Virus genome (UHGV): UHGV-0231970
Source: a virus
DNA: 21,313 nt
Strand: one strand, 5' to 3'
Shown here: positions 1 through 21,313 of the stretch, in pieces
Layout: each line of letters begins with the position of its first letter
How positions within the stretch are numbered: position 1 is the stretch's first letter
Notes under the pieces: generated by a model
Told to the model about the DNA's origin: nothing
Database searches by the model: none
What the model saw: only the letters and a program-made list of their open reading frames with translations
Translations under genes and position numbers: made by a program

Positions 1-1569
1 CCGGACGGCATGACATCGCTGCGTGAATATGCCGGTTATCACGGCGGTGGCAGCGGATTTGGTGGGCAGTTGCGGGCGTGGAACCCACCGGGTGAAAGTG
101 TGGATGCAGCCCTGCTGCCCAACTTTACCCGTGGCAATGCCCGCGCAGACGATCTGGTACGCAATAACGGCTATGCTGCCAACGCCATCCAGCTGCATCA
201 GGATCATATCGTCGGGTCTTTTTTCCGGCTCAGTCATCGCCCAAGCTGGCGCTATCTGGGCATCGGGGAGGAAGACGCCCGTGCCTTTTCCCGCGAGGTT
301 GAAGCGGCATGGAAAGAGTTTGCCGAGGATGACTGCTGCTGCATTGACGTTGAGCGAAAACGCACGTTTACCATGATGATTCGGGAAGGTGTGGCCATGC
401 ACGCCTTTAACGGTGAACTGTTCGTTCAGGCCACCTGGGATACCAGTTCGCCGCGGCTTTTCCGGACACAGTTCCGGATGGTCAGCCCGAAGCGCATCAG
501 CAACCCGAACAATACCGGCGACAGCCGGAACTGCCGTGCCGGTGTGCAGATTAATGACAGCGGTGCGGCGCTGGGATATTACGTCAGCGAGGACGGCTAT
601 CCTGGCTGGATGCCGCAGAAATGGACATGGATACCCCGTGAGTTACCCGGCGGGCGCGCCTCGTTCATTCACGTTTTTGAACCCGTGGAGGACGGGCAGA
701 CCCGCGGTGCAAATGTGTTTTACAGCGTGATGGAGCAGATGAAGATGCTCGACACGCTGCAGAACACGCAGCTGCAGAGCGCCATTGTGAAGGCGATGTA
801 TGCCGCCACCATTGAGAGTGAGCTGGATACGCAGTCAGCGATGGATTTTATTCTGGGCGCGAACAGTCAGGAGCAGCGGGAAAGGCTGACCGGCTGGATT
901 GGTGAAATTGCCGCGTATTACGCCGCAGCACCGGTCCGGCTGGGAGGCGCAAAAGTGCCGCACCTGATGCCGGGGGACTCACTGAACCTGCAGACGGCTC
1001 AGGACACGGATAACGGCTACTCCGTGTTTGAGCAGTCACTGTTGCGGTATATCGCTGCCGGGCTGGGTGTCTCGTATGAGCAGCTTTCCCGGAATTACGC
1101 CCAGATGAGCTACTCCACGGCACGGGCCAGTGCGAACGAGTCGTGGGCGTACTTTATGGGGCGGCGAAAATTCGTCGCATCCCGTCAGGCGAGCCAGATG
1201 TTTCTGTGCTGGCTGGAAGAGGCCATCGCTCGCCGCGTGGTGACGTTACCTTCAAAAGCGCGCTTCAGTTTTCAGGAAGCCCGAAGTGCCTGGGGGAACT
1301 GCGACTGGATAGGCTCCGGTCGTATGGCCATCGATGGTCTGAAAGAAGTACAGGAAGCGGTGATGCTGATAGAAGCCGGACTGAGTACCTACGAGAAAGA
1401 GTGCGCAAAACGCGGTGACGACTATCAGGAAATTTTTGCCCAGCAGGTCCGTGAAACGATGGAGCGCCGTGCAGCCGGTCTTAAACCGCCCGCCTGGGCG
1501 GCTGCGGCATTTGAATCCGGGCTGCGACAATCAACAGAGGAGGAGAAGAGTGACAGCAGAGCTGCGTAA
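1..1569 (+). CDS. B: Portal protein gpB, 5'-partial (the reading frame is open from base 1, so the start lies upstream of the window)
   Basis: ORF 10..1569 translation (MTSLREYAGYHGGGSGFGG...) matches lambda portal protein B from recall; frame reads PDGM from position 1, so the true start is upstream. Stop TAA 1567-1569. Confidence 0.93.
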   Translation, partial: PDGMTSLREYAGYHGGGSGFGGQLRAWNPPGESVDAALLPNFTRGNARADDLVRNNGYAANAIQLHQDHIVGSFFRLSHRPSWRYLGIGEEDARAFSREVEAAWKEFAEDDCCCIDVERKRTFTMMIREGVAMHAFNGELFVQATWDTSSPRLFRTQFRMVSPKRISNPNNTGDSRNCRAGVQINDSGAALGYYVSEDGYPGWMPQKWTWIPRELPGGRASFIHVFEPVEDGQTRGANVFYSVMEQMKMLDTLQNTQLQSAIVKAMYAATIESELDTQSAMDFILGANSQEQRERLTGWIGEIAAYYAAAPVRLGGAKVPHLMPGDSLNLQTAQDTDNGYSVFEQSLLRYIAAGLGVSYEQLSRNYAQMSYSTARASANESWAYFMGRRKFVASRQASQMFLCWLEEAIARRVVTLPSKARFSFQEARSAWGNCDWIGSGRMAIDGLKEVQEAVMLIEAGLSTYEKECAKRGDDYQEIFAQQVRETMERRAAGLKPPAWAAAAFESGLRQSTEEEKSDSRAA

Positions 1570-2878: not shown

Positions 2879-3211
2879 ATGACGAGCAAAGAAACCTTTA
2901 CCCATTACCAGCCGCTGGGCAACAGTGACCCGGCTCATACCGCAACCGCGCCCGGCGGATTGAGTGCGAAAGCGCCTGCAATGACCCCGCTGATGCTGGA
3001 CACCTCCAGCCGTAAGCTGGTTGCGTGGGATGGCACCACCGACGGTGCTGCCGTTGGCATTCTTGCGGTTGCTGCTGACCAGACCAGCACCACGCTGACG
3101 TTCTACAAGTCCGGCACGTTCCGTTATGAGGATGTGCTCTGGCCGGAGGCTGCCAGCGACGAGACGAAAAAACGGACCGCGTTTGCCGGAACGGCAATCA
3201 GCATCGTTTAA
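2879..3211 (+). CDS. D: Head decoration protein gpD
   Basis: ORF 2873..3211; [27 protein letters not shown]... matches lambda gpD (110 aa) from ATG 2879. The ATG at 2873 is an alternative start two codons upstream. Confidence 0.9.
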
Positions 3212-3228
3212 CTTTACCCTTCATCACT

Positions 3229-3253
3229 AAAGGCCGCCTGTGCGGCTTTTTTT
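3229..3253 (+). terminator. Intrinsic-terminator-like hairpin between D and E (stem GCCGC / GCGGC, loop CTGT, followed by a T-run)
   Basis: Read directly: AAAGGCCGC-CTGT-GCGGCTTTTTTT. The A-tract and T-tract extend the stem, so it could act in either direction. Sits between D stop (3211) and E start (3267). Confidence 0.45.
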
Positions 3254-3266
3254 ACGGGATTTTTTT

Positions 3267-4292
3267 ATGTCGATGTACACAACCGCCCAGCTGCTGGCGG
3301 CAAATGAGCAGAAATTTAAGTTTGATCCGCTGTTTCTGCGTCTCTTTTTCCGTGAGAGCTATCCCTTCACTACGGAGAAAGTCTATCTCTCACAAATTCC
3401 GGGACTGGTAAACATGGCGCTGTACGTTTCGCCGATTGTTTCCGGTGAGGTTATCCGTTCCCGTGGCGGCTCCACCTCTGAATTTACGCCGGGATATGTC
3501 AAACCCAAGCATGAAGTGAATCCGCAGATGACCCTGCGTCGCCTGCCGGATGAAGATCCGCAGAATCTGGCGGACCCGGCTTACCGCCGCCGTCGCATCA
3601 TCCTGCAGAACATGCGTGACGAAGAGCTGGCCATTGCTCAGGTCGAAGAGATGCAGGCAGTTTCTGCCGTGCTCAAGGGCAAATACACCATGACCGGTGA
3701 AGCCTTCGATCCGGTTGAGGTGGATATGGGCCGCAGTGCGGCGAACAACATCACGCAGTCCGGCGGCACGGAGTGGAGCAAGCGTGACAAGTCCACGTAT
3801 GACCCGACCGACGATATCGAAGCCTACGCGCTGAACGCCAGCGGCGTGGTGAATATCATCGTGTTTGATCCGAAAGGCTGGGCGCTGTTCCGTTCCTTCA
3901 AAGCCGTCAAGGAGAAGCTGGATACCCGTCGCGGCTCTCATTCCGAGCTGGAGACAGCGGTGAAAGACCTGGGTAAAGCGGTGTCCTATAAGGGGATGTA
4001 TGGCGATGTGGCCATCGTCGTGTATTCCGGACAGTACGTGGAAAACGGCGTCAAAAAGAACTTCCTGCCGGACAACACGATGGTGCTGGGTAACACTCAT
4101 GCACGCGGTCTGCGCACCTATGGCTGTATTCAGGATGCGGATGCATTGAGTGAGGGTATTAATGCGTCTCCCCGTTATCCGAAAAACTGGAAGACATCCG
4201 GCGATCCGGCGCGAGAGTTCACCATGATTCAGTCAGCACCGCTGATGCTGCTGGCTGATCCTGATGAGTTCGTGTCCGTTCAACTGGCGTAA
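3267..4292 (+). CDS. E: Major capsid protein gpE
   Basis: ORF 3240..4292; MSMYTTAQLLAANEQKFKFDPLFLRLFF... matches lambda gpE (341 aa) from ATG 3267. The GTG at 3240 lies inside the upstream hairpin and is unlikely to be used. Confidence 0.95.
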   Translation: MSMYTTAQLLAANEQKFKFDPLFLRLFFRESYPFTTEKVYLSQIPGLVNMALYVSPIVSGEVIRSRGGSTSEFTPGYVKPKHEVNPQMTLRRLPDEDPQNLADPAYRRRRIILQNMRDEELAIAQVEEMQAVSAVLKGKYTMTGEAFDPVEVDMGRSAANNITQSGGTEWSKRDKSTYDPTDDIEAYALNASGVVNIIVFDPKGWALFRSFKAVKEKLDTRRGSHSELETAVKDLGKAVSYKGMYGDVAIVVYSGQYVENGVKKNFLPDNTMVLGNTHARGLRTYGCIQDADALSEGINASPRYPKNWKTSGDPAREFTMIQSAPLMLLADPDEFVSVQLA

Positions 4293-4294
4293 TC

Positions 4295-4312
4295 ATGGCC
4301 CTTCGGGGCCAT
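4295..4312 (+). promoter_or_regulatory. Perfect 7-bp stem with TTCG (UUCG) tetraloop immediately after the E stop codon
   Basis: Read directly: ATGGCCC-TTCG-GGGCCAT at 4295-4312, followed by TTTCTCTC. The ATG inside the stem (4295) is the upstream alternative start of the FI ORF. Confidence 0.4.
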
Positions 4313-4333
4313 TTTCTCTCTGTGGAGGAGTCC

Positions 4334-4729
4334 ATGACGAAAGATGAACTGATTGCCCGTCTTCAGGTGCTGGGTGAGCAACTGAACCGTGATGTCAGCC
4401 TGACGGGGACGAAAGAAGAACTGGCGCTCCGTGTGGCAGAGCTGGAAGAGGAGCTTGATGACACGGATGACGCTGCCGGTCAGGACACATCTGTCAGCCC
4501 GGAAAATGCGCTGACCGGACATGAAAATGAGGTGGTATCAGCGCAGCCGGATACCGTGACTGATACGGCTGATCTGGTCACGGTTGTGGCACTGGTGACG
4601 CTGCATACCGATGCACTTCACGCCACGCGGGATGAGGCTGTGGCATTTGTGCTGCCGGGAACGGCGTTCCGTGTCTCTGCCGGTGTGTCAGCTGAAATGA
4701 CAGAGCGCGGCCTGGCCAGAATGCAATAA
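4334..4729 (+). CDS. FI: DNA packaging / head assembly protein gpFI
   Basis: ORF 4295..4729; MTKDELIARLQVLGEQLNRDVSLTGTKEELALRVAELEEELDD... matches lambda FI from ATG 4334, preceded by GGAGGAG (4324-4330). Confidence 0.85.
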   Translation: MTKDELIARLQVLGEQLNRDVSLTGTKEELALRVAELEEELDDTDDAAGQDTSVSPENALTGHENEVVSAQPDTVTDTADLVTVVALVTLHTDALHATRDEAVAFVLPGTAFRVSAGVSAEMTERGLARMQ

Positions 4730-4740
4730 CGGGAGGCGCT

Positions 4741-5094
4741 GTGGCTGATTTCGATAACCTGTTCGATGCTGCCATTGCCCGCGCCGATGAAACGATACGC
4801 GGGTACATGGGAACGTCAGCCACCATGACATCCGGTGAGCAGTCCGGCGCAGTAATACGTGGTGTTTTTGATGACCCTGAAAATATCAGCTATGCCGGAC
4901 AGGGCGTGCGCGTTGAAGGCTCCAGCCCGTCCCTGTTTGTCCGGACTGATGATGTGCGGCAACTGCGGCGTGGAGACACGCTGACCATCGGTGAGGAAAA
5001 CTTCTGGATAGACCGGGTTTCGCCGGATGATGGTGGAAGCTGTCATCTCTGGCTTGGGCGGGGCGTACCGCCTGCCGTTAACCGTCGCCGCTGA
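4741..5094 (+). CDS. FII: Head-tail joining (head completion) protein gpFII
   Basis: ORF 4741..5094 (117 aa, GTG start) matches lambda FII over its full length (MADFDNLFDAAIARADETIRGYMGTS...). GGGAGG at 4731-4736. Confidence 0.9.
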   Translation: MADFDNLFDAAIARADETIRGYMGTSATMTSGEQSGAVIRGVFDDPENISYAGQGVRVEGSSPSLFVRTDDVRQLRRGDTLTIGEENFWIDRVSPDDGGSCHLWLGRGVPPAVNRRR

Positions 5095-5105
5095 AAGGGG
5101 GATGT

Positions 5106-5684
5106 ATGGCCATAAAAGGTCTTGAGCAGGCCGTTGAAAACCTCAGCCGTATCAGCAAAACGGCGGTGCCTGGTGCCGCCGCAATGGCCATTAACCGCGT
5201 TGCTTCATCCGCGATATCGCAGTCGGCGTCACAGGTTGCCCGTGAGACAAAGGTACGCCGGAAACTGGTAAAGGAAAGGGCCAGGCTGAAAAGGGCCACG
5301 GTCAAAAATCCGCAGGCCAGAATCAAAGTTAACCGGGGGGATTTGCCCGTAATAAAGCTGGGTAACGCGCGGATTGTCCTGTCCCGACGCAGGCGTCGTA
5401 AAAAGGGGCAGCGTTCAGCCCTGAAAGGTGGCGGCAGCGTGCTTGTGGTGGGAAACCGTCGTATTCCCGGCGCGTTTATTCAGCAACTGAAAAATGGCCG
5501 CTGGCATGTCATGCAGCGTGTGGCCGGGAAAAACCGTTACCCCATTGATGTGTTGAAAATCCCGATGGCGGTGCCGCTGACCACGGCGTTTAAACAGAAT
5601 ATTGAACGGATACGGCGTGAACGTCTTCCGAAAGAGCTGGGCTATGCGCTGCAGCATCAACTGAGAATGGTAATAAAGCGATGA
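5106..5684 (+). CDS. Z: Minor tail protein gpZ (tail completion)
   Basis: ORF 5106..5684, 192 aa, MAIKGLEQAVENLSRISKTAVPGAAAMAINRV... matches lambda Z. Stop TGA overlaps the U start as ATGA. Confidence 0.9.
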   Translation: MAIKGLEQAVENLSRISKTAVPGAAAMAINRVASSAISQSASQVARETKVRRKLVKERARLKRATVKNPQARIKVNRGDLPVIKLGNARIVLSRRRRRKKGQRSALKGGGSVLVVGNRRIPGAFIQQLKNGRWHVMQRVAGKNRYPIDVLKIPMAVPLTTAFKQNIERIRRERLPKELGYALQHQLRMVIKR

Positions 5685-6076
5685 AACATACTGAACTCCG
5701 TGCAGCCGTACTGGATGCACTGGAGAAGCATGACACCGGGGCGACGTTTTTTGATGGTCGCCCCGCTGTTTTTGATGAGGCGGATTTTCCGGCAGTTGCC
5801 GTTTATCTCACCGGCGCTGAATACACGGGCGAAGAGCTGGACAGCGATACCTGGCAGGCGGAGCTGCATATCGAAGTTTTCCTGCCTGCTCAGGTGCCGG
5901 ATTCAGAGCTGGATGAGTGGATGGAGTCCCGGATTTATCCGGTGATGAGTGATATCCCGGCACTGTCAGATTTGATCACCAGTATGGTGGCCAGCGGCTA
6001 TGACTACCGGCGCGACGATGATGCGGGCCTGTGGAGTTCAGCCGATCTGACTTATGTCATTACCTATGAAATGTGA
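5681..6076 (+). CDS. U: Tail tube terminator protein gpU
   Basis: ORF 5681..6076, 131 aa, [39 protein letters not shown]... matches lambda U. Confidence 0.9.
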
Positions 6077-6083
6077 GGACGCT

Positions 6084-6824
6084 ATGCCTGTACCAAATCC
6101 TGTAATGCCGGTGAAAGGTGCCGGGACCACCCTGTGGGTTTATAAGGGAAGCGGTGACCCTTATGCGAATCCGCTTTCAGACGTTGACTGGTCGCGTCTG
6201 GCAAAAGTTAAAGACCTGACGCCCGGCGAACTGACCGCTGAGTCCTATGACGACAGCTATCTCGATGATGAAGATGCAGACTGGACTGCGACCGGGCAGG
6301 GGCAGAAATCTGCCGGAGATACCAGCTTCACGCTGGCGTGGATGCCCGGAGAGCAGGGGCAGCAGGCGCTGCTGGCGTGGTTTAATGAAGGGGATACCCG
6401 AGCCTATAAAATCCGCTTCCCGAACGGCACGGTCGATGTGTTCCGCGGCTGGGTCAGCAGTATCGGTAAGGCGGTGACGGCGAAGGAAGTGATCACCCGC
6501 ACGGTGAAGGTCACCAATGTGGGCCGTCCGTCGATGGCAGAAGATCGCAGCACGGTGACGGCGACAACCGGCATGACTGTGACGCCTGCCAGCACCTCGG
6601 TGGTGAAAGGGCAGAGCACCACGCTGACCGTGGCATTCCAGCCGGAAGGCGCAACCGACAAGAGCTTCCGTGCGGTGTCTGCGGATAAAACAAAAGCCAC
6701 CGTGTCGGTCAGTGGTATGACCATCACCGTGAAAGGTGTTGCTGCAGGCAAGGTCAACATTCCGGTCGTATCCGGTAATGGTGAGTTTGCTGCGGTTGCA
6801 GAAATCAACGTCACCGCCAGTTAA
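6084..6824 (+). CDS. V: Major tail tube protein gpV (with C-terminal Ig-like domain)
   Basis: ORF 6054..6824; lambda gpV homology starts at ATG 6084 ([22 protein letters not shown]...), GAGGA at 6075-6079. 246 aa. Confidence 0.9.
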
Positions 6825-6839
6825 TCCGGAGAGTCAGCG

Positions 6840-7262
6840 ATGTTCCTGAAAACCGAATCATTTGAACATAACGGTGTGACCGTCACGCTTTCTGAACTGT
6901 CAGCCCTGCAGCGTATTGAGCATCTCGCCCTGATGAAACGACAGGCAGAACAGGCGGAGTCAGACAGCAACCGGAAGTTTACTGTGGAAGACGCCATCAG
7001 AACCGGCGCTTTTGTGGTGGCGATGTCCCTGTGGCATAACCATCCGCAGAAGACAAAGCTGCCTTCTATGAATGAAGCCGTTAAACAGATTGAGCAGGAA
7101 GTGCTTACCACCTGGCCCACGGAGGCAATTTCTCATGCTGAAAACGTGGTGTACCGGCTGTCCGGTATGTATGAGTTTGTGGTGAATGATGCTCCTGAAC
7201 AGACAGAGGACGCCGGGCCTGCAGAGCCTGTTTCTGCGGGAAAGTGTTCGATGGTGAGCTGA
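6840..7262 (+). CDS. G: Tail assembly chaperone gpG
   Basis: ORF 6840..7262, 140 aa, MFLKTESFEHNGVTVTLSELSALQRIEHLALMKRQ... matches lambda G. Confidence 0.9.
   Translation: MFLKTESFEHNGVTVTLSELSALQRIEHLALMKRQAEQAESDSNRKFTVEDAIRTGAFVVAMSLWHNHPQKTKLPSMNEAVKQIEQEVLTTWPTEAISHAENVVYRLSGMYEFVVNDAPEQTEDAGPAEPVSAGKCSMVS
7238..7244 (+). promoter_or_regulatory. Programmed -1 ribosomal frameshift slippery heptamer G GGA AAG (G to G-T)
   Basis: Read directly: GGGAAAG at 7238-7244 in the G frame (codons GCG GGA AAG). The -1 frame from 7244 is open through the T ORF to 7678. Confidence 0.8.
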
Positions 7263-7678
7263 GTTTTGCCCTGAAACTGGCGCGAGAGATGGGGCGACCC
7301 GACTGGCGTGCCATGCTTGCCGGGATGTCATCCACGGAGTATGCCGACTGGCACCGCTTTTACAGTACCCATTATTTTCATGATGTTCTGCTGGATATGC
7401 ACTTTTCCGGGCTGACGTACACCGTGCTCAGCCTGTTTTTCAGCGATCCGGATATGCATCCGCTGGATTTCAGTCTGCTTAACCGGCGCGAGGCTGACGA
7501 AGAGCCTGAAGATGATGTGCTGATGCAGAAAGCGGCAGGGCTTGCCGGAGGTGTCCGCTTTGGCCCGGACGGGAATGAAGTTATCCCCGCTTCCCCGGAT
7601 GTGGCGGACATGACGGAGGATGACGTAATGCTGATGACAGTATCAGAAGGGATCGCAGGAGGAGTCCGGTATGGCTGA
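7244..7678 (+). CDS. T: T segment of the tail assembly chaperone fusion gpGT (expressed as G residues 1-~135 + T via -1 frameshift)
   Basis: ORF 7244..7678 (FDGELSFALKLAREMGRPDWRAMLAGMSSTEYADW...) matches lambda gpT. It has no independent ATG or SD; the first codon is GTG at the slip site. Confidence 0.85.
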   Translation: MFDGELSFALKLAREMGRPDWRAMLAGMSSTEYADWHRFYSTHYFHDVLLDMHFSGLTYTVLSLFFSDPDMHPLDFSLLNRREADEEPEDDVLMQKAAGLAGGVRFGPDGNEVIPASPDVADMTEDDVMLMTVSEGIAGGVRYG

Positions 7679-10232
7679 ACCGGTAGGCGATCTGGTCGTT
7701 GATTTAAGTCTGGATGCGGCCAGATTTGACGAGCAGATGGCCAGAGTCAGGCGTCATTTTTCCGGTACGGAAACTGATGCGAAAAAAACAGCGGCAGTCG
7801 TTGAACAGTCGCTGAGCCGACAGGCGCTGGCTGCACAGAAAGCGGGGATTTCCGTCGGGCAGTATAAAGCCGCCATGCGTATGCTGCCTGCACAGTTCAC
7901 CGACGTGGCCACGCAGCTTGCAGGCGGGCAAAGCCCGTGGCTGATCCTGCTGCAACAGGGGGGTCAGGTGAAGGACTCCTTCGGCGGGATGATCCCCATG
8001 TTCCGGGGGCTTGCCGGTGCGATCACCCTGCCGATGGTGGGGGCCACCTCGCTGGCGGTGGCGACCGGTGCGCTGGCGTATGCCTGGTATCAGGGCAACT
8101 CAACCCTGTCCGATTTCAACAAAACGCTGGTCCTTTCCGGCAATCAGGCCGGGCTGACGGCAGATCGTATGCTGGTCCTGTCCAGAGCCGGGCAGGCGGC
8201 AGGGCTGACGTTTAACCAGACCAGCGAGTCACTCAGTGCACTGGTTAAGGCGGGGGTAAGTGGTGAGGCTCAGATTGCGTCCATCAGCCAGAGTGTGGCG
8301 CGTTTCTCTTCTGCATCCGGTGTGGAGGTGGACAAGGTCGCTGAAGCCTTCGGGAAGCTGACCACTGACCCGACGTCGGGGCTGACGGCGATGGCGCGCC
8401 AGTTCCATAACGTGACGGCGGAGCAGATTGCGTATGTTGCTCAGTTGCAGCGTTCCGGCGATGAAGCCGGGGCATTGCAGGCGGCGAACGAAGCCGCAAC
8501 GAAAGGGTTTGATGACCAGACCCGCCGCCTGAAAGAGAACATGGGCACGCTGGAGACCTGGGCAGACAGGACAGCGCGGGCATTCAAATCCATGTGGGAT
8601 GCGGTGCTGGATATTGGTCGTCCTGATACCGCGCAGGAGATGCTGATTAAGGCAGAGGCTGCGTTTAAGAAAGCAGACGACATCTGGAATCTGCGCAAGG
8701 ATGATTATTTTGTTAACGATGAAGCGCGGGCGCGTTACTGGGATGATCGTGAAAAGGCCCGTCTTGCGCTTGAAGCCGCCCGAAAGAAGGCTGAGCAGCA
8801 GACTCAACAGGACAAAAATGCGCAGCAGCAGAGCGATACCGAAGCGTCACGGCTGAAATATACCGAAGAGGCGCAGAAGGCTTACGAACGGCTGCAGACG
8901 CCGCTGGAGAAATATACCGCCCGTCAGGAAGAACTGAACAAGGCACTGAAAGACGGGAAAATCCTGCAGGCGGATTACAACACGCTGATGGCGGCGGCGA
9001 AAAAGGATTATGAAGCGACGCTGAAAAAGCCGAAACAGTCCGGCGTGAAGGTGTCTGCGGGCGATCGTCAGGAAGACAGTGCTCATGCTGCCCTGCTGAC
9101 GCTTCAGGCAGAACTCCGGACGCTGGAGAAGCATGCCGGAGCGAATGAGAAAATCAGCCAGCAGCGCCGGGATTTGTGGAAGGCGGAGAGTCAGTTCGCG
9201 GTACTGGAGGAGGCGGCGCAACGTCGCCAGCTGTCTGCACAGGAGAAATCCCTGCTGGCGCATAAAGATGAGACGCTGGAGTACAAACGCCAGCTGGCTG
9301 CACTTGGCGACAAGGTTACGTATCAGGAGCGCCTGAACGCGCTGGCGCAGCAGGCGGATAAATTCGCACAGCAGCAACGGGCAAAACGGGCCGCCATTGA
9401 TGCGAAAAGCCGGGGGCTGACTGACCGGCAGGCAGAACGGGAAGCCACGGAACAGCTCCTGAAGGAACAGTATGGCGATAATCCGCTGGCGCTGAATAAC
9501 GTCATGTCAGAGCAGAAAAAGACCTGGGCGGCTGAAGACCAGCTTCGCGGGAGCTGGATGGCAGGCCTGAAGTCCGGCTGGAGTGAGTGGGAAGAGAGCG
9601 CCACGGACAGTATGTCGCAGGTTAAAAGTGCAGCCACGCAGACCTTTGATGGTATTGCACAGAATATGGCGGCGATGCTGACCGGCAGTGAGCAGAACTG
9701 GCGCAGCTTCACCCGTTCCGTGCTGTCCATGATGACAGAAATTCTGCTTAAGCAGGCAATGGTGGGGATTGTCGGGAGTATCGGCAGCGCCATTGGCGGT
9801 GCTGCCAGTGGTGGAGCATCCGCGTCAGGCGGTACAGCCATTCAGGCCGCTGCGGCGAAATTCCATTTTGCGACCGGGGGATTTACGGGAACCGGCGGCA
9901 AATATGAGCCAGCGGGGATTGTTCACCGTGGTGAATTTGTCTTCACGAAGGAGGCAACCAGCCGGATTGGTGTCGGCAACCTGTACCGCCTGATGCGGGG
10001 CTATGCGGAAGGTGGTTATGTGGGCGGTGCCGGAAGTCCGGCGCAGATGCGGCGGGCTGAAGGCATTAATTTTAATCAGAACAATCACGTGGTGATTCAG
10101 AACGACGGTACGAATGGTCTGCCAGGTCCACAGATGATGAAGGCAGTGTATGACATGGCCCGCAAGGGTGCCCGTGATGAAATTCAGACACAGATGCGTG
10201 ATGGTGGCCTGTTCTCCGGAGGTGGACGATGA
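7671..10232 (+). CDS. H: Tail tape measure protein gpH
   Basis: ORF 7671..10232, 853 aa, MAEPVGDLVVDLSLDAARFDEQMARVRRHF... matches lambda H. GGAGGAG upstream; overlaps the T 3' end by 8 nt. Confidence 0.95.
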   Translation: MAEPVGDLVVDLSLDAARFDEQMARVRRHFSGTETDAKKTAAVVEQSLSRQALAAQKAGISVGQYKAAMRMLPAQFTDVATQLAGGQSPWLILLQQGGQVKDSFGGMIPMFRGLAGAITLPMVGATSLAVATGALAYAWYQGNSTLSDFNKTLVLSGNQAGLTADRMLVLSRAGQAAGLTFNQTSESLSALVKAGVSGEAQIASISQSVARFSSASGVEVDKVAEAFGKLTTDPTSGLTAMARQFHNVTAEQIAYVAQLQRSGDEAGALQAANEAATKGFDDQTRRLKENMGTLETWADRTARAFKSMWDAVLDIGRPDTAQEMLIKAEAAFKKADDIWNLRKDDYFVNDEARARYWDDREKARLALEAARKKAEQQTQQDKNAQQQSDTEASRLKYTEEAQKAYERLQTPLEKYTARQEELNKALKDGKILQADYNTLMAAAKKDYEATLKKPKQSGVKVSAGDRQEDSAHAALLTLQAELRTLEKHAGANEKISQQRRDLWKAESQFAVLEEAAQRRQLSAQEKSLLAHKDETLEYKRQLAALGDKVTYQERLNALAQQADKFAQQQRAKRAAIDAKSRGLTDRQAEREATEQLLKEQYGDNPLALNNVMSEQKKTWAAEDQLRGSWMAGLKSGWSEWEESATDSMSQVKSAATQTFDGIAQNMAAMLTGSEQNWRSFTRSVLSMMTEILLKQAMVGIVGSIGSAIGGAASGGASASGGTAIQAAAAKFHFATGGFTGTGGKYEPAGIVHRGEFVFTKEATSRIGVGNLYRLMRGYAEGGYVGGAGSPAQMRRAEGINFNQNNHVVIQNDGTNGLPGPQMMKAVYDMARKGARDEIQTQMRDGGLFSGGGR

Positions 10233-16762: not shown

Positions 16763-19700
16763 ATGGCAGTAAAAATTTCAGGTGTACTGAAAGACGGCAC
16801 AGGAAAACCGGTACAGAACTGCACAATCCAGCTGAAAGCAAAACGTAACAGTACCACGGTGGTGGTGAACACGCTGGCATCTGAAAATCTGGATGAAGCC
16901 GGGCGTTACAGTATGGACGTTGAGTACGGTCAGTACAGCGTTATTCTGTTGGTGGAAGGATTCCCGCCGTCACATGCCGGGACCATCACAGTGTATGAAG
17001 ATTCCCGACCCGGTACGCTGAATGATTTTCTCGGTGCCATGACGGAGGATGATGCCCGTCCGGAGGCACTGCGCCGTTTTGAGCTGATGGTGGAAGAGGT
17101 GGCGCGTAACGCGTCCGTGGTGGCACAGAACACGGCAGCCGCGAAGAAGTCAGCCAGTGATGCCAGCACATCAGCCCGTGAGGCGGCAACCCATGCGACT
17201 GATGCTGCAGGCTCAGCACGCGCAGCCAGCACGTCAGCCGGACAGGCCGCGTCGTCGGCTCAGTCAGCGTCTTCCAGCGCAGGAACGGCATCAACAAAGG
17301 CCACTGAAGCCTCAAAAAGTGCTGCCGCTGCAGAGTCCTCAAAAAGCGCGGCGGCTACCAGTGCCGGTGCGGCGAAAACGTCAGAAACGAATGCGGCAGC
17401 GTCAGAACAATCAGCCGCCACTTCTGCATCCACCGCGACCACGAAAGCGTCAGAAGCTGCCACCTCAGCCAGGGATGCGTCGGCTTCAAAAGAGGCGGCA
17501 AAATCATCAGAAACGAACGCATCATCAAGCGCCAGTAGTGCAGCTTCCTCGGCAACGGCGGCAGGAAATTCCGCGAAGGCGGCAAAGACGTCTGAGACAA
17601 ACGCCAGGTCCTCTGAAACGGCAGCAGCACAGAGTGCCTCCGCAGCAGCAGGCTCAAAAACAGCGGCTGTGTCGTCGGCCAGTGCCGCGTCAACAAGTGC
17701 CGGGCAGGCCTCAGCCAGTGCCACCGCCGCCGGAAAATCGGCAGAAAGCGCCGCATCATCCGCTTCAACAGCCACAACGAAGGCTGGCGAAGCCACTGAA
17801 CAGGCCACTGCAGCAGCGAGGGCTGCTTCCGCAGCGAAGACATCCGAAACGAACGCGAAAGCGTCGGAAACCAGCGCAGAATCCTCAAAAACGGCTGCCG
17901 CATCGTCCGCCAGTTCGGCGGCGTCATCGGCATCATCGGCGTCTGCTTCAAAAGATGAGGCGACCAGACAGGCGTCAGCAGCGAGGGGCAGCGCCACGAC
18001 GGCATCCACGAAGGCGACAGAGGCTGCTGGCAGTGCGGCAGCGGCAGCACAGAGCAAAAGTACGGCAGAATCCGCAGCAACTCGCGCTGAGACAGCGGCA
18101 AAACGGGCAGAGGATATTGCATCCGCCGTGGCGCTTGAGGATGCGAGCACGACGAAAAAGGGGATAGTACAGCTCAGCAGTGCGACTAACAGCACGTCTG
18201 AAACGCTGGCGGCAACGCCAAAGGCAGTAAAAGCAGCCTATGACAATGCAGAGAAACGTCTGCAGAAAGACCAGAACGGTGCTGATATTCCCGACAAGGA
18301 CCGCTTCCTGAGTAACATTAATGTTTACAGCAAAGGTGAAGTGGATCAGAAAAAGGGGATGCGATACGTTGTGGTAAATGCCCCGGCGGGTGTCCAGGAA
18401 GGTAAATATTATCCGTTAGTGATAAAAAGGAATGACAGCCATCGGGCATCCCGCGTTGTCATTTCAACGCCAAGTCGCTTAGCTAATCACAGAATGAATA
18501 ATTGTGAGTTTAATGGTTTTGTTTGCGCAGGCGGCTGGACGGACCGGGGTAGCTATGCCTGTGGTATGTTCTGGGCTTATTCATCATCGGAACGCGCTAT
18601 TCATTCCATTCTGATGAGTAATAAAGGCGATACCGTAGACAGCGTATTCTATATAGAAGGTGGGGCATTTCCCGTAGAGGTCTTTTTAGAAGAAGGTCTC
18701 TCCGTTACTGCACCTGCTTCTGATTATATTGTTGCTGAAACGACTTATAAATTTGGCGCAACTGATCCTTATTCTGAATCAGTTGCGGTAAATTTAATTT
18801 TAGATTTTAAACAAGGTAATGGATTTTATAGTTCGTATCCTGTTTTGAGTAAGTCAGACATTAGCGGGAATAAGATTTACGCTAATGATGAAGTTATTGT
18901 CCGTAGTCAGAACGCGTTAAGGATGATTGCAGGTGATTACGGTGTCATATGGCGAAATGATGGAGCAAATACTTACTTGCTCATGACTGATAAAGGCGAC
19001 CAGTACGGTGGCTGGAACGGTCTTCGACCATTTGCAGTAAATAACGCAACAGGTGAAGTGACGATCAATACACCACTTAATTCTCCTAAGGGGATTAAGG
19101 GAAATTCTTATACAGCTACGAAACTTCAGACAGCAATAAAAATATCTGGTGTTTCGTTTGATGGTTCTACTGATATCACTTTAACCGCTGCGCATGTTGC
19201 TGCTTTTGCCAGAAGAGCAACGGATACGTATGCCGATGCGGATGGGGGCGTTCCCTGGAATGCCGAATCAGGCGCTTACAATGTCACTCGCTCTGGCGAC
19301 AGCTATATTCTGGTTAACTTCTATACCGGAGTCGGAAGTTGCCGGACCTTGCAGATGAAGGCGCATTACAGAAATGGTGGTCTGTTCTACCGTTCTTCAA
19401 GAGATGGCTATGGTTTTGAGGAAGACTGGGCAGAAGTTTATACCTCGAAAAATCTTCCACCAGAAAGCTACCCAGTCGGTGCACCAATCCCGTGGCCATC
19501 AGATACCGTTCCGTCTGGCTATGCCCTGATGCAGGGGCAGACTTTTGACAAATCTGCTTACCCGAAACTTGCAGCCGCTTATCCGTCAGGCGTGATCCCT
19601 GATATGCGTGGCTGGACGATTAAGGGCAAGCCCACCAGTGATCGAGCCGTATTGTCTCAGGAACAGGACGGCATTAAATCACACACCCACAGCGCCAGCG

Positions 19701-20140
19701 TATCCAGTACGGATTTGGGGACGAAAACCACATCGTCGTTTGATTACGGCACTAAATCCACGAATAACACTGGTGCGCATACCCATAGTGTTAGCGGTAC
19801 GGCTGCTTCAGCCGGTGCACATACCCATTCGATGACATTTGTTTCAGGTGGTTCCAGTGGTGCTCCGGGAAGTGGATCACCTGATTATTCTAAATACAGT
19901 GTTAACACTTCTTCTGCAGGCGCTCATACGCACTCTGTATCGGGTACTGCTGCAAGCGCAGGTGCACACGCACATACTGTCGGTATTGGTGCTCATACGC
20001 ACTCCGTTGCGATTGGTTCACATGGACATACGTCTTCAACGAGATGCCACGATGCCTCATCACTGTTGAAAACAGCCACGAAGCCTGCCGGAATATCTGG
20101 CGGTGCAATATCGATACTGTTTGCTGGCAGACCTGTATGA
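16763..20140 (+). CDS. stf: Side tail fibre protein Stf (long mosaic form, with a non-canonical C-terminal 35 residues)
   Basis: ORF 16757..20140 (the GTG at 16757 gives the ORF-track M; homology-consistent ATG at 16763, [26 protein letters not shown]...). Lambda Stf-like N-terminus, Ala/Ser/Thr-rich repeats, AT-rich central segment, seven His-x-His boxes, then an ending not found in lambda Stf. Confidence 0.85.
19954..20031 (+). repeat. Left copy of a perfect 78-bp inverted repeat (inside the stf coding sequence, His-box region)
   Basis: Direct comparison: 19954-20031 is the exact reverse complement of 20320-20397; identity stops at both outer ends (19953 and 20398 do not pair). Confidence 0.9.
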
Positions 20141-20319
20141 GGCGGAATATATGCGTCAACTTCACCAATAAATTCATTAGTTCCGGCCAGCAGATTATAA
20201 ATTTTTATGGTCCGTGGTTGTTCATTCATTCTGAATGCCATTATGCAAGCCTCACAATATAGTTAAATGCGATGTTTTTGACGGTGTTTTCCGCGTTACC
20301 AGCAGCGTTAACGGTGATG
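20032..20319 (-). other. 288-bp segment between the inverted repeats, carrying the canonical stf 3' end (...[25 protein letters not shown]) and tfa codons 1-~69 on the - strand
   Basis: - strand ORFs 20241..20453 and 19993..20241: the first ends ...[31 protein letters not shown] (lambda Stf C-terminus); the second begins [27 protein letters not shown]... (lambda Tfa N-terminus). They are joined by a TAATG stop/start overlap at 20239-20243. Confidence 0.85.
20035..20241 (-). pseudogene. tfa: tfa' : N-terminal fragment of the tail fibre assembly protein Tfa (about 69 homologous codons, then runs into the antisense of the left repeat)
   Basis: ORF 19993..20241 (-): [70 protein letters not shown] matches the lambda Tfa N-terminus; the remaining 12 residues ([12 protein letters not shown]) are antisense of the stf His-box codons. 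No Tfa C-terminal part anywhere in the window. Confidence 0.8.
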
Positions 20320-20397
20320 GTATGTCCATGTGAACCAATCGCAACGGAGTGCGTATGAGCACCAATACCGACAGTATGTGCGTGTGCACCTGCGCTT
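20320..20397 (+). repeat. Right copy of the perfect 78-bp inverted repeat
   Basis: Exact reverse complement of 19954-20031; on the - strand it encodes [25 protein letters not shown] in the stf frame. Confidence 0.9.
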
Positions 20398-20529
20398 CCG
20401 TGTCTTATCTTCATCATCAACAACGATAAAAATTTTCCCGGTATAGCCAGCACGACGCAACGTCCGGTAAGTCAGAACTTTGTCCGGTCGCCCGTGAGTC
20501 AGAATAAAGGCGCAAAAATCATCACGCAT
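20398..20529 (-). pseudogene. 5' fragment (about 42 codons) of an unidentified gene, truncated at the right inverted-repeat boundary
   Basis: - strand ATG at 20529-20527 preceded by GGAGGAGGA, overlapping the upstream stop as ATGCGTGA. Product [42 protein letters not shown], then the frame enters the repeat and becomes Cys/Arg-rich nonsense (ORF 20308..20550). The pattern I-x-T-x-x-R-P-D ... I-x-V-V-D-D is reminiscent of a GT-A-fold glycosyltransferase N-terminus, but this is weak. Confidence 0.45.
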
Positions 20530-21313
20530 ATTCCTCCTCCTCACCACCATGCATGATCTCCACCATGCGCTGCGTCATCCGGACAAATCCATTTTCAATA
20601 GCCTGCTGATAATCAATGATCACCAGCGCCGACTCCTCGAAAAAACACTGAATTTCAGAGGGGGCGTGAGCGTAATAGTCCGCAATTCTGCTGAAATTAA
20701 ACACCGTGTGACGTTCTGCCGCACACAGGAGGAATTTCTCAATATCAGGCTCAAGGGACGCCGAACGTATCCGGCTGATCAGCTCCTGAGTTTTCGTATC
20801 GTCGTACAGTTCACTGATATCCGGTTTACCGCCCGACGGCTCATAAACAGGCGTATCAATTTTCGTCGTATACGGCTCCTCCTCATTTCCTGTACCGGGC
20901 AAAACATCCGTCAACAGTTCATCAATTTCTGTCGGGATGAAGCCTGTCAGGGAGACATCAAAATCAGCATTGATTAGGTCCGACAGCTCCATCCGCAACA
21001 GATCTTCATCCCAGCCAGCATTCATCGGCAGGCGATTATCTGCCAGGCGGTACGCCTTTTTCTGCTCATCCGTCAGGCCAGACAGAACAATGACCGGAAC
21101 AGAATCCATTTTGAGCATTTCAGCCGCCATAACACGACCGTGACCCGCAATAATTTCGCCCTTTTCGTCAATCAGCACCGGATTAGTCCAGCCGAATTGC
21201 TTAATACTTTCTACCAGTTGTGCCACCTGCTCAGGGCTGTGCGTCCTGGCGTTGTGCGCATACGGTGACAATTCTTGTAATGGGCGATAGACTATCTTTA
21301 ATTTCTCGCTCAT
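20522..21313 (-). CDS. ParB N-terminal-domain (ParB/sulfiredoxin-like nuclease fold) protein; start codon lies exactly at the window edge
   Basis: ORF 20522..21313 (-), 263 aa. Motifs typical of ParB-like domains: LSPYAHNARTH, IAGHGRVMAA (GxxR box), AYRLADNRL. Acidic C-terminal tail (GGEEEEYA) whose codons form the SD of the next gene. Cannot tell whether the protein extends beyond the window. Confidence 0.7.
   Translation of the reverse strand: MSEKLKIVYRPLQELSPYAHNARTHSPEQVAQLVESIKQFGWTNPVLIDEKGEIIAGHGRVMAAEMLKMDSVPVIVLSGLTDEQKKAYRLADNRLPMNAGWDEDLLRMELSDLINADFDVSLTGFIPTEIDELLTDVLPGTGNEEEPYTTKIDTPVYEPSGGKPDISELYDDTKTQELISRIRSASLEPDIEKFLLCAAERHTVFNFSRIADYYAHAPSEIQCFFEESALVIIDYQQAIENGFVRMTQRMVEIMHGGEEEEYA

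Follow-up and report, generated by a model that had tools for sequence, protein, structure and literature searches.

A truncated ParB-glycosyltransferase gene pair in a decayed Rac-type prophage and the probable role of its intact counterparts

Genes and features at the end of the window

The stretch of DNA analysed here (the window: 21,313 nucleotides, UHGV virus genome UHGV-0231970) ends in a leftward unit of two overlapping genes, which are listed in Table 1 together with the neighbouring features. The first ORF of the unit shares 100% DNA identity with an annotated gene in five E. coli phage or prophage records and, by these matches, corresponds to E. coli ynaK in the full-length version known from intact Rac-type prophages. 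The Rac ynaK of E. coli is the same gene, of which K-12 retains just the first ~85 codons, in contrast to the full-length 263-aa form in the window. The original prediction that this ORF is intact and that its product is ParB-like held on both counts, the profile PF02195 matching residues 23-90 with 28.9 bits, above the curated threshold of 26.3. The protein also matched Spo0J/ParB structures in phmmer searches (E 2e-5), and its N-terminal domain tested positive for the ParB/Srx three-dimensional fold; the test for the full ParB/RepB/Spo0J architecture with an HTH DNA-binding domain was negative. The nucleotide-binding motifs G57-H-G-R60 (Box II / P motif) and D92-N93 (Box III) are invariant among 36 enterobacterial YnaK homologues, and among 114 diverse homologues R60 and N93 are each kept in 81%. 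An AF2 model of YnaK built with 114 diverse sequences was confident, and a search with it retrieved no convincing structural relative of the C-terminal domain, the conserved motifs of which are YTxKIxxPxYEPxG, AAxRHTVF, IAxYYAHA and SALVIIDxxxAIxxGF. This C-terminal domain is represented in no domain library and occurs in 1180 clusters. Literature searches returned nothing specific on ynaK function.

The final codons of ynaK read GAG GAG GAG GAA TAT GCG TGA, and both the purine-rich end and the overlap of the next ATG with the stop codon are present as anticipated. The same 8-nt overlap occurs in an annotated relative (L001; CDS 5202-6134 and 6127-6918), which bears out the proposed coupling of the two genes through it. 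The GAGGAGGAGGAA run lies upstream of the second start codon at a spacing of 1 nt (whole run) to 6 nt (first GGAGG) and, by its sequence, may serve in ribosome binding.

The second frame (MRDD...DEDKTR) agrees with an intact homologue over 44 codons, two more than the 42 originally read. Homology to the intact gene stops at 20398, followed by two shared bases (20397-20396), after which the frame runs on out of frame through the right arm of an inverted repeat for 29 codons, down to a stop at 20310-20308. The gene had been described as decapitated; it is the 5' end that was kept (14% of the gene), the missing 86% being its 3' part. The idea that this short ORF is not a complete small gene proved right, its relatives all being 285-310 aa long, and the intact homologue could be identified as a 310-aa TAGT glycosyltransferase. 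This protein matches PF20691 (121.1 bits, cut-off 27.5, E 7.6e-35, residues 8-222) and PHROG 842 (E 1e-103) and keeps the DDD (DxD) motif of the family, D102-D103-D104, which is invariant in five distant TAGT homologues; the TAGT profile found no match among the sequences of solved structures. The fused ORF of 73 aa carries the precomputed Pfam label "TAGT (weak)". D102-D103-D104 and all residues beyond are absent from the window copy, and an identical 132-nt remnant in E. coli strain cM2a is labelled by PGAP as a "GREB1-related protein" pseudogene. The TAGT copy of the window is a pseudogene. The cassette in the window is dead: because its enzyme lacks the catalytic core it is non-functional, and ynaK is left as a relic.

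Table 1. Coordinates of the features at the right end of the window
Feature	Position	Strand	Basis or remark
ynaK-type gene, intact, 263 aa	20522..21313	-	ATG starts at the last base of the window
YnaK ParB/Srx (ParB-CTPase fold) N-terminal domain	20909..21313	-	residues ~1-135
YnaK disordered linker	residues ~136-146	-	AF2 domain layout
YnaK conserved C-terminal "TAGT-partner" domain	20579..20875	-	residues ~147-245; without Pfam entry
Purine run GAGGAGGAGGAA, last ynaK sense codons	20531..20542	-	Shine-Dalgarno-like
Start/stop overlap ATGCGTGA, 8 nt, ynaK stop and TAGT start	20522..20529	-	next ATG at 20529-20527
TAGT-family (PF20691) glycosyltransferase gene remnant, codons 1-44 of 310	20398..20529	-	identity to intact homologue
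Junction 1: TAGT codon 44 / stf ~51 codons before stop	20396..20397	.	2 nt microhomology
Rac stf 3' remnant (last 51 codons and stop)	20241..20397	-	includes the right repeat arm as its first 78 nt
tfaR, truncated at junction 2 (codons 1-70 kept)	20032..20241	-	sequence match
Junction 2	20031..20032	.	Qin-site-type prophage stf (+ strand), cut 25 codons before stop, head-to-head with tfaR codon 70
Left repeat arm	19954..20031	+	same 26 stf codons, in the other prophage's otherwise full-length stf (16757/16763-20140)

The intact ParB-TAGT cassette in other phages

Intact Rac-type prophages show the gene order lysis-trkG-ParB-TAGT-69aa-terS-terL-portal, in which the ynaK-TAGT pair heads the packaging operon about 20 kb away from stf, and 889 of the 5426 complete E. 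coli genomes (~16%) carry the pair intact. The cassette ranges over phages of Proteobacteria, Firmicutes, Actinobacteria and Bacteroidota, and over those of haloarchaea: ParB partner and TAGT share 32-49% identity across E. coli, Lactobacillus, Nocardia and a haloarchaeal virus, always with the overlap, and a Porphyromonas phage has the same gene layout with a TAGT identity of 27%. In annotated phages the two genes overlap by 4-29 nt. In IMG/VR the ParB partner stands upstream of TAGT in 80/80 loci and the genes overlap in 79/80, the 80 loci, out of at least 510, being the closest relatives (56-100% identity) and not a random sample. In 16 non-redundant loci, the four genes that follow TAGT encode 14 proteins with a large-terminase domain and nine with a small-terminase domain. 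TET_JBP was not among the 25 commonest Pfam families of the four genes on each side of TAGT in these 16 loci, no TET/JBP dioxygenase is annotated in a complete Rac-type prophage or in phage c5, and none of ten hypothetical proteins of phage c5 is a recognisable dioxygenase; nor did these three sources (16-locus neighbourhoods by their commonest families, Rac-type prophage and phage c5) contain an enzyme for a hydroxymethyl acceptor. As far as gene order and content tell, intact ParB-TAGT is a fixed overlapping cassette, TET-less and directly upstream of the terminase genes. Contexts of ParB and TAGT were reportedly first discussed in Iyer et al. 2013 and Iyer et al. 2009; our literature searches gave nothing specific on a ParB-glycosyltransferase pair upstream of terminase.

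The TAGT family PF20691 takes in the second glucosyltransferase of T6-like phages, the kinetoplastid base-J glucosyltransferase and animal GREB1. The YnaK-linked clade differs from the rest in not being TET-associated and in being tied to a partner with ParB and C-terminal domains and to terminase genes. No hydroxymethyl or glucosyl-HMC acceptor is known in the DNA of the hosts of ParB-TAGT phages. A close parallel to the arrangement is the 5mYOX176/ParB176 pair, in which, as described, the ParB protein likewise has its NTP-binding domain connected by a disordered linker to a C-terminal domain and lacks a canonical DNA-binding domain, and its gene is an accessory to a neighbouring post-replicative DNA-modifying enzyme, often near terminase genes (PMC13229309). 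That layout of ParB-activated pairs (NTP-binding domain, linker, C-terminal domain and adjoining enzyme) is found in YnaK-TAGT too, according to the AF2 model and in 79/80 loci. The partner here, however, is a glycosyltransferase and not a dioxygenase, and no 5mYOX/TET gene lies nearby. The ParB-dependent subclass of 5mYOX accompanies kinases, amidotransferases and amino-acid transferases; glycosyltransferases accompany the ParB-independent one (PMC13229309).

How might the intact cassette work? YnaK and TAGT would be produced together and late, off one message, right before terminase. The C-terminal domain of YnaK would act as a TAGT-specific partner and its ParB domain, by analogy with ParB-dependent phage thymine dioxygenases, would give a nucleotide-dependent grip on double-stranded DNA, while the glycosyltransferase would put a sugar onto phage DNA before or during packaging, using an acceptor other than TET-made 5hmC or 5hmU. 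It has been reported that a phage DNA dioxygenase is activated on dsDNA by a ParB homologue with NTP-binding domain, linker and C-terminal domain (PMC13229309) and that TAGT relatives add sugars to DNA bases (PMC13390438, PMC7968844); a proposal that ParB directs modification enzymes during packaging is also cited in PMC8256090. As a counterpoint, mutating the NTP-binding residues changed little in the one ParB-enzyme pair studied, and no stable complex was trapped (PMC13229309). By these analogies we infer that the intact cassette probably serves a ParB-assisted, late glycosylation of phage DNA.

The sugar could instead be destined for a protein, be it a virion protein, terminase, a host protein or YnaK itself, with YnaK as adaptor or substrate. 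GREB1, which represents this glycosyltransferase family in animals, attaches O-GlcNAc to a protein and not to DNA (PMC7968844); no source of hydroxymethyl-pyrimidine came to light in the neighbourhoods surveyed, and the YnaK linker motif YTxKIxxPxYEPxGxKP offers an invariant Tyr and a near-invariant Thr/Ser. We nevertheless consider a protein target unlikely, since every characterised phage or kinetoplastid family member acts on DNA bases (PMC13390438, PMC7968844), the partner has a DNA-clamp fold that elsewhere is fused to DNA methyltransferases (PMC12704722), and a site right before the packaging genes suits DNA modification (PMC8256090).

It is improbable that YnaK is a classical partition or nuclease protein, serving plasmid-prophage maintenance or pac/cos cutting, with the glycosyltransferase as an unrelated neighbour. 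Phage records do carry the annotation "chromosome (plasmid) partitioning protein ParB", the gene adjoins the terminase genes, and in NTR1 no small terminase is annotated between the ParB-TAGT pair and terL. Yet YnaK falls below the cut-off of the partition-ParB model TIGR00180 (38.5 vs 58.45), no ParA gene occurs in any of the neighbourhoods examined, where trkG and lysis genes precede ynaK and TAGT and the terminase genes follow it, and the overlapping pair co-occurs at every one of the 80 IMG/VR loci. In Vibrio phage pv27, moreover, a protein made of the C-terminal domain alone, lacking the ParB domain, still precedes TAGT. The N-terminal domain itself (residues ~3-141) is nearest to the N-terminus of phage ParB-DNA methyltransferase fusions (ParB_N + N6_N4_Mtase; PHROG 498, E 1.2e-50), whose ParB domain is the one most similar to that of YnaK. 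Like YnaK, these fusions are prophage-enriched (PMC12704722); unlike them, YnaK has no methyltransferase domain but a conserved C-terminal domain in its place, the enzyme being encoded by a separate overlapping gene.

Two junctions behind the truncation and the inverted repeat

The TAGT gene breaks off at junction 1. A search with a junction-centred query showed E. coli cM2a to be the sole carrier of the identical junction among 5426 complete genomes; three other assemblies also have it, arranged as trkG-ynaK(263 aa)-TAGT'-full tfaR-pinR-ynaE-uspF-ompN. In cM2a and these three assemblies junction 1 comes without any inverted repeat and is followed by complete tfaR and pinR. FT130 shares the breakpoint on the TAGT side. 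The matches of many genomes to 20032-21313 had suggested a widespread Rac form with junction 1, which was rejected: one complete genome has the exact junction, and the rest are other deletions or insertions. Decay of Rac is common, with partial ynaK-TAGT pairs in ~690 genomes besides the 889 full ones and many cases in which YnaK is fused to Lom, TerL, Tfa or NlpC.

On the comparison of these sequences, the break in TAGT is an old Rac deletion that predates the inverted-repeat rearrangement. An illegitimate deletion with the 2-nt microhomology would have removed everything from TAGT codon 45 onward up to the last 51 stf codons, that is, the small gene, terS, terL and the head and tail genes, and ynaK-TAGT would have come to lie beside stf through loss of all that stood between. 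Because the deletion spared the last 51 stf codons, the right repeat is a leftover of Rac's own stf.

The original prediction had taken the pair for an accessory or defence-type locus, ParB plus enzyme, beside the tail-fibre genes and broken by the inverted-repeat rearrangement of stf. The partner enzyme does come from a DNA-modification family, so that the modification half of this idea stands, and the break falls at the outer boundary of the right arm. As a whole the reading is very unlikely: the four other assemblies have the same break without the repeat; in intact phages the pair is no neighbour of stf, its two genes being those that open the packaging/late operon; and the defence half found no match among defence models beyond the shared ParB domain, YnaK matching just the ParB-domain part of the type II methyltransferase model of PADLOC-DB 2.0 (MTase_II, 2.2e-38, with its N-terminal domain) and TAGT matching nothing there. 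In the place of the "upstream partners" expected outside the window, relatives have the moron trkG and the lysis cassette.

The inverted repeat, in turn, is real as predicted: its arms (19954-20031 and 20320-20397) are 78 nt long, 100% complementary and separated by 288 nt. It arises because a second, complete lambda-like prophage of the Qin/ydfJ-site kind, which carries the same stf codons, abuts tfaR codon 70 head-to-head. The window is set apart from all other Rac sequences searched by this tfaR cut at codon 70, inverted against the stf of another prophage. Window positions 1-20031 match CT29 at 98.7%, adjoining ydfK/ynfT/ydfJ; in CT29 the Rac side (nifJ) lies ~230 kb from the Qin-site-type prophage, and the tfa/pin ends of the Rac and Qin-site loci both face the interval between the two. 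Junction 2, where the two prophages meet, has zero homology and no microhomology. It was absent from 5426 complete E. coli genomes (megablast) and, as an exact 34-nt junction pattern, from viral, genome and metagenome contig collections, and an exact-protein look-up found neither of two junction-2-specific ORFs in the gene-position index. A draft contig with the same Rac form stops inside tfa. On plausibility, junction 2 most likely represents two contig ends, both in multi-copy tail-fibre sequence, placed end to end, the alternative being a real deletion of ~200-230 kb of the terminus region between the convergent Rac and Qin sites. We also considered the repeat length as a de Bruijn-graph k-mer artefact (78 = 77 + 1), against which the outer repeat edge is set by junction 1 regardless. 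The inverted repeat is probably a join of two prophage loci rather than a biological switch.

A Pin/Gin-type invertible tail-fibre segment with the ParB-TAGT stump merely lying beyond it is hardly credible, even if the repeat sits within a fibre gene, pin genes come after tfa in related loci and a flip of the 288-nt spacer would give back a normal stf C-terminus, since there is no gix-like crossover site, both arms consist of normal stf coding sequence (78 nt) that comes from two separate prophages, the segment between them contains a truncated tfa and offers no alternative fibre end, and the right arm is bordered on its outer side by the junction of the Rac deletion. The whole window was searched for Mu gixL (up to 3 mismatches) and for AAACCNNGGTTT, the core of the gix crossover site (up to 1 mismatch); neither gave a match.

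Implications of the intact gene pair

We favour, with a probability of roughly 80%, the reading of window positions 20398-21313 as the promoter-proximal stump of a Rac-type prophage late operon that was truncated by an old deletion and to which a second prophage was joined, the intact cassette having the role proposed above. The window itself is a case of ordinary prophage decay and of little import, the Rac stump being already present and annotated in public genomes. Its use lies in revealing what has disappeared, a ParB-glycosyltransferase cassette that is conserved between E. coli and viruses of haloarchaea and lacks the dioxygenase from which the family takes its name.

When intact, the two genes make up a phage cassette that is widespread and uncharacterised. 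Tentatively, and at clearly worse than even odds, we propose that it constitutes a TET-independent modification module tied to DNA packaging, in which the acceptor would be a base, either unmodified or modified by the host, the end of a DNA molecule or a packaging protein, and the ParB domain would be a DNA-loading switch. The question can be tested in a standard host: is the DNA of Rac-type lambdoid phages glycosylated, and is the enzyme licensed by a ParB-fold protein, as in the phage thymine dioxygenases? If the proposal of a TET-independent module is true, an overlooked system for the glycosylation of DNA or of packaging proteins would be present in lambdoid prophages that are common in E. 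coli.

ynaK and the stump of its partner gene

The original prediction of a two-gene unit on the minus strand, lying beside an inverted repeat, was borne out by our analysis, small details aside (see the table). The first frame, predicted there to be ParB-like, passes the Pfam ParB_N cut-off (28.9 versus 26.3 bits) and ends with the codons GGT GGT GAG GAG GAG GAA TAT GCG TGA. The second is a real remnant, of 44 codons homologous to the intact gene and not 42 as first counted, followed by 29 further codons up to its stop; it is the 3' part that is missing, the 5' end being kept, so the gene is not decapitated as had been described. The window's last base is the A of the ynaK ATG, which leaves outside it the promoter and the upstream region, where relatives carry trkG and a lysis cassette; the first base lies 33 nt within the portal gene of a lambda-like prophage, as judged against that of E. 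coli CT29.

Coordinates of the minus-strand unit, the inverted repeat and the two junctions
Feature	Position	Strand	Detail
ynaK ORF	ATG at the window's last base, 21313, to TGA 20524-20522	-	263 aa
Start/stop overlap, ATGCGTGA	next-frame ATG 20529-20527 versus ynaK TGA	-	8 nt
Purine run, GAGGAGGAGGAA	20542-20531	-	5' of the overlap
Stop of the second frame	20310-20308	-	
Junction 1 (TAGT codon 44/stf)	20396-20397		
Inverted repeat, right arm	20320-20397		78 nt, perfect
Inverted repeat, left arm	19954-20031		78 nt, perfect; 288-nt spacer
Junction 2 (stf/tfaR codon 70)	20031/20032		

The 916 bases at 20396-21313 match five E. coli phage or prophage records at 100% identity and one Salmonella phage record at 99.8%. 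In these records trkG and the lysis cassette are followed by the ParB-like gene, a 310-aa gene with the same 8-nt overlap, a 69-aa gene, terS, terL and portal. One record extends into the flanking chromosome (ttcA, intR, recET, racR and others) and is therefore a complete Rac-type prophage. RefSeq names the first gene ynaK, a "ParB/Srx family N-terminal domain-containing protein", and the second a "GREB1-related protein". These intact homologues in related prophages reveal what the truncated gene was, namely a glycosyltransferase of the TAGT family (PF20691, E 7.6e-35; PHROG 842, E 1e-103), whose members include the second glucosyltransferase of T6-like phages, the kinetoplastid base-J glucosyltransferase and animal GREB1 (PMC13390438, PMC7968844). 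Only codons 1-44 of TAGT remain in the window; the invariant DDD motif (residues 102-104) has been lost and this copy is thus a pseudogene. In the intact prophage, the 69-aa gene after TAGT (5015-5224 of the record) matches the C-terminal part of small-terminase PHROG 309 (E 1e-17), and the annotated terS (3917-5011) is unusually long, 364 aa, with its Terminase_2 domain confined to residues 122-321.

The intact ParB-TAGT cassette

Using the E. coli TAGT as tblastn query, 38-49% identical proteins were found in Lactobacillus phages phi jlb1 and c5, Nocardia phage NTR1 and haloarchaeal virus HHTV-2, in all of which a ParB-like gene of ~245-280 aa overlaps the TAGT start by 4-29 nt and terminase genes come next; in c5 the pair forms the first two genes past cos. 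A Porphyromonas phage shows the order ParB-TAGT-terS-terL-portal at 27% TAGT identity. In IMG/VR 510 relatives were confirmed, and the ParB partner lies upstream on the same strand in all 80 loci retained (the closest relatives), overlapping TAGT in 79. The lone exception (IMGVR_UViG_3300047160_004028, 2945-8719; L086) has ~3.2 kb of mainly opposite-strand ORFs between the partner and a 572-aa TAGT ORF that may be a fusion or contain an insertion. Neighbourhoods were counted over 16 non-redundant loci, four genes per locus; lysis or replication genes lie upstream of the pair, and 14 of the 63 downstream proteins carry a large-terminase and nine a small-terminase domain, which corresponds to at most 14 of the 16 loci. 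No TET/JBP family appeared among the top 25 Pfam families listed for these neighbourhoods, nor was a recognisable dioxygenase or hydroxymethylase found in the complete Rac-type prophage or in the 31.8-kb phage c5. Matches to Methyltransf_23, MptE-like and Glyco_transf_9 occur in two of the 16 neighbourhoods, in a four-gene stretch upstream of the pair, and these genes could be part of the same modification pathway; the Pfam table gives member counts alone, and the loci L055 and L060 (about 3900-5400) are our guess at the carriers from their ORF layout.

PHROG 620 covers the whole of YnaK (E 8.5e-91), and the N-terminal 140 residues of the protein are closer to the ParB domain found in phage fusions with DNA methyltransferases (PHROG 498, E 1.2e-50; PADLOC MTase_II, 2.2e-38) than to partition ParBs. 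A recent survey describes ParB-CTPase folds fused to methyltransferases as prophage-enriched (PMC12704722). The ParB partners align end to end, the C-terminal 100 residues (motifs YTxKIxxPxYEPxG, AAxRHTVF, IAxYYAHA and SALVIIDxxxAIxxGF) being better conserved than the ParB domain, a contrast inflated by the selection of the 114-sequence set with the C-terminal domain itself. As a query against 1.84 billion representatives, this domain retrieved 1180 clusters at 50% identity, most of them proteins of 250-300 aa that end in the domain, and some of 128-180 aa. In the 191-kb Vibrio jumbo phage pv27 (OR413349.1, 2959-4388) the gene before TAGT encodes the C-terminal domain only (139 aa, E 1e-46), devoid of a ParB domain, and a helicase, not terminase genes, follows. 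What accompanies this TAGT clade throughout is therefore the C-terminal domain, and the ParB fold is its usual N-terminal addition. An AlphaFold2 model of YnaK built with the 114 diverse sequences (mean pLDDT 87.5) places a disordered linker at about 136-146 (pLDDT <50 around 141-147) ahead of the extended YTxK...YEPxG motif (147-165); conserved residues include R60, the Box II arginine, and N93, the asparagine of Box III. A matching layout has been published for the ParB homologues that serve phage thymine dioxygenases as activators on double-stranded DNA (PMC13229309).

As the most likely mechanism we propose that YnaK and TAGT would be co-produced late from a single message immediately upstream of the terminase, that the C-terminal domain of YnaK would bind or position the glycosyltransferase while its ParB domain would provide nucleotide-dependent access to duplex DNA, and that TAGT would glycosylate phage DNA prior to or during packaging. 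The identities of the genes, their overlap and co-occurrence, their place ahead of the terminase, the absence of TET from the neighbourhoods as listed and the folds are established, whereas the contact between the two proteins, the DNA target and the time of expression are inferred. To DNA glycosylation by the intact cassette we assign a probability of about 40-45%. That the acceptor is instead a protein seems unlikely; still less likely is a role of YnaK in packaging or partition unconnected with the enzyme, YnaK scoring below the cut-off of the partition-ParB model TIGR00180 (38.5 versus 58.45). In the window the cassette is inoperative, since TAGT is truncated.

Junction 1 and the decay of Rac

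TAGT homology ends at 20398, with two extra bases common to stf, and past this point the minus strand reads the final 51 stf codons and then tfaR from its ATG. The break had been tentatively blamed on a rearrangement of stf at the inverted repeat; the identical junction, however, stands at the Rac locus of E. coli cM2a, followed by complete tfaR, pinR, ydfK, uspF and ompN. Of 5426 complete E. coli genomes, cM2a alone has the exact junction, and the 73-aa fused ORF is present in three further assemblies, in the order trkG, ynaK (263 aa), truncated TAGT, full tfaR, pinR, ynaE, uspF and ompN. Given its presence in cM2a and these assemblies, junction 1 goes back to an old illegitimate deletion within Rac that removed the whole structural region without involvement of the inverted repeat. 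The original prediction was right on the kind of genes and wrong on their history and setting. E. coli FT130 (L092, 1709-1967) has the same TAGT-side breakpoint and a diverged stf remnant 30 nt shorter, and a diguanylate cyclase gene replaces pinR 3' of tfaR in this strain; the difference stems either from a second, small deletion with CCG repeats on both sides or from a related event.

Rac decay of this type is frequent, as illustrated by genome counts, K-12, fusion proteins and strain BE2-5. The full ynaK-TAGT pair is kept in 889 of the 5426 complete genomes and at least a part of it in 1580, about 85 ynaK codons are left in K-12, and many YnaK fragments in the protein database are fused to Lom, TerL, Tfa or NlpC/P60 domains. 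Among the latter, the E. coli proteins P0073, P0077, P0079, P0086, P0099, P0111 and P0114 join YnaK residues 1 to 150-165 to Lom, tail-fibre-assembly, NlpC/P60 or terminase domains, and represent independent deletions with one end within ynaK. BE2-5 (NZ_CP032986.1, 4136-7718) carries another Rac rearrangement, in which an inverted segment with the 69-aa gene and terS is flanked on one side by an stf remnant and on the other by a TAGT gene complete but for its C-terminus. A short stf fragment abuts this TAGT gene head-to-head; inversions in the Rac region do therefore occur in finished genomes.

The inverted repeat and junction 2

Positions 1-20031 are a lambda-like head-and-tail module that begins in portal and goes on to J, lom and stf. 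The CT29 prophage adjoining ydfK, ynfT and ydfJ, the Qin site, is collinear with it at 98.7% identity. The stf of the module is normal to ...GSHGHT (20031) and is joined there, with no shared bases, to the reverse complement of tfaR codon 70 from the Rac side, so that the repeat arms are the same 26 stf codons of two different prophages; junction 1 bounds the right arm on the outside, and junction 2 bounds both arms on the inside. The Ala/Ser/Thr-rich, low-complexity part of stf (17100-18200) is also open over long stretches in its other frames and on the minus strand; the ORFs at 17157-18167 (+), 17260-18195 (-) and 17355-18122 (-) are shadows produced by this composition and not genes.

Junction 2 was absent from the 5426 complete E. 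coli genomes, from viral, genome and metagenome contig collections and from a gene-position index of the junction ORFs. On either side it is flanked by tail-fibre sequence present in multiple copies; draft contigs stop in such sequence, and a contig of one assembly with the 73-aa fused ORF indeed ends within tfa. Its uniqueness, the multi-copy sequence on both sides and the zero homology favour two contigs joined end to end, which we regard as its probable origin. A real large deletion comes second and is rather unlikely. The Rac and Qin sites are opposed across the terminus region, about 230 kb apart in CT29, and the tfa/pin ends of both loci are directed at the interval between them (cM2a, CT29); a single deletion of this interval would therefore generate the topology of the window. 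Recombination between the arms (19954-20397) would flip the spacer to give a complete stf with normal C-terminus followed by tfa codons 1-70, whereas in the present orientation 35 codons of antisense tfa stand in for the final 25 codons of stf. An invertible segment of the Pin type is unlikely, as no gix-like site was found in the window.

The two-gene stump of the window is an ordinary leftover of Rac prophage decay that public genomes already contain and annotate, and it probably adjoins an assembly join. It is itself of little interest; the intact cassette is a reasonable target for experiments.
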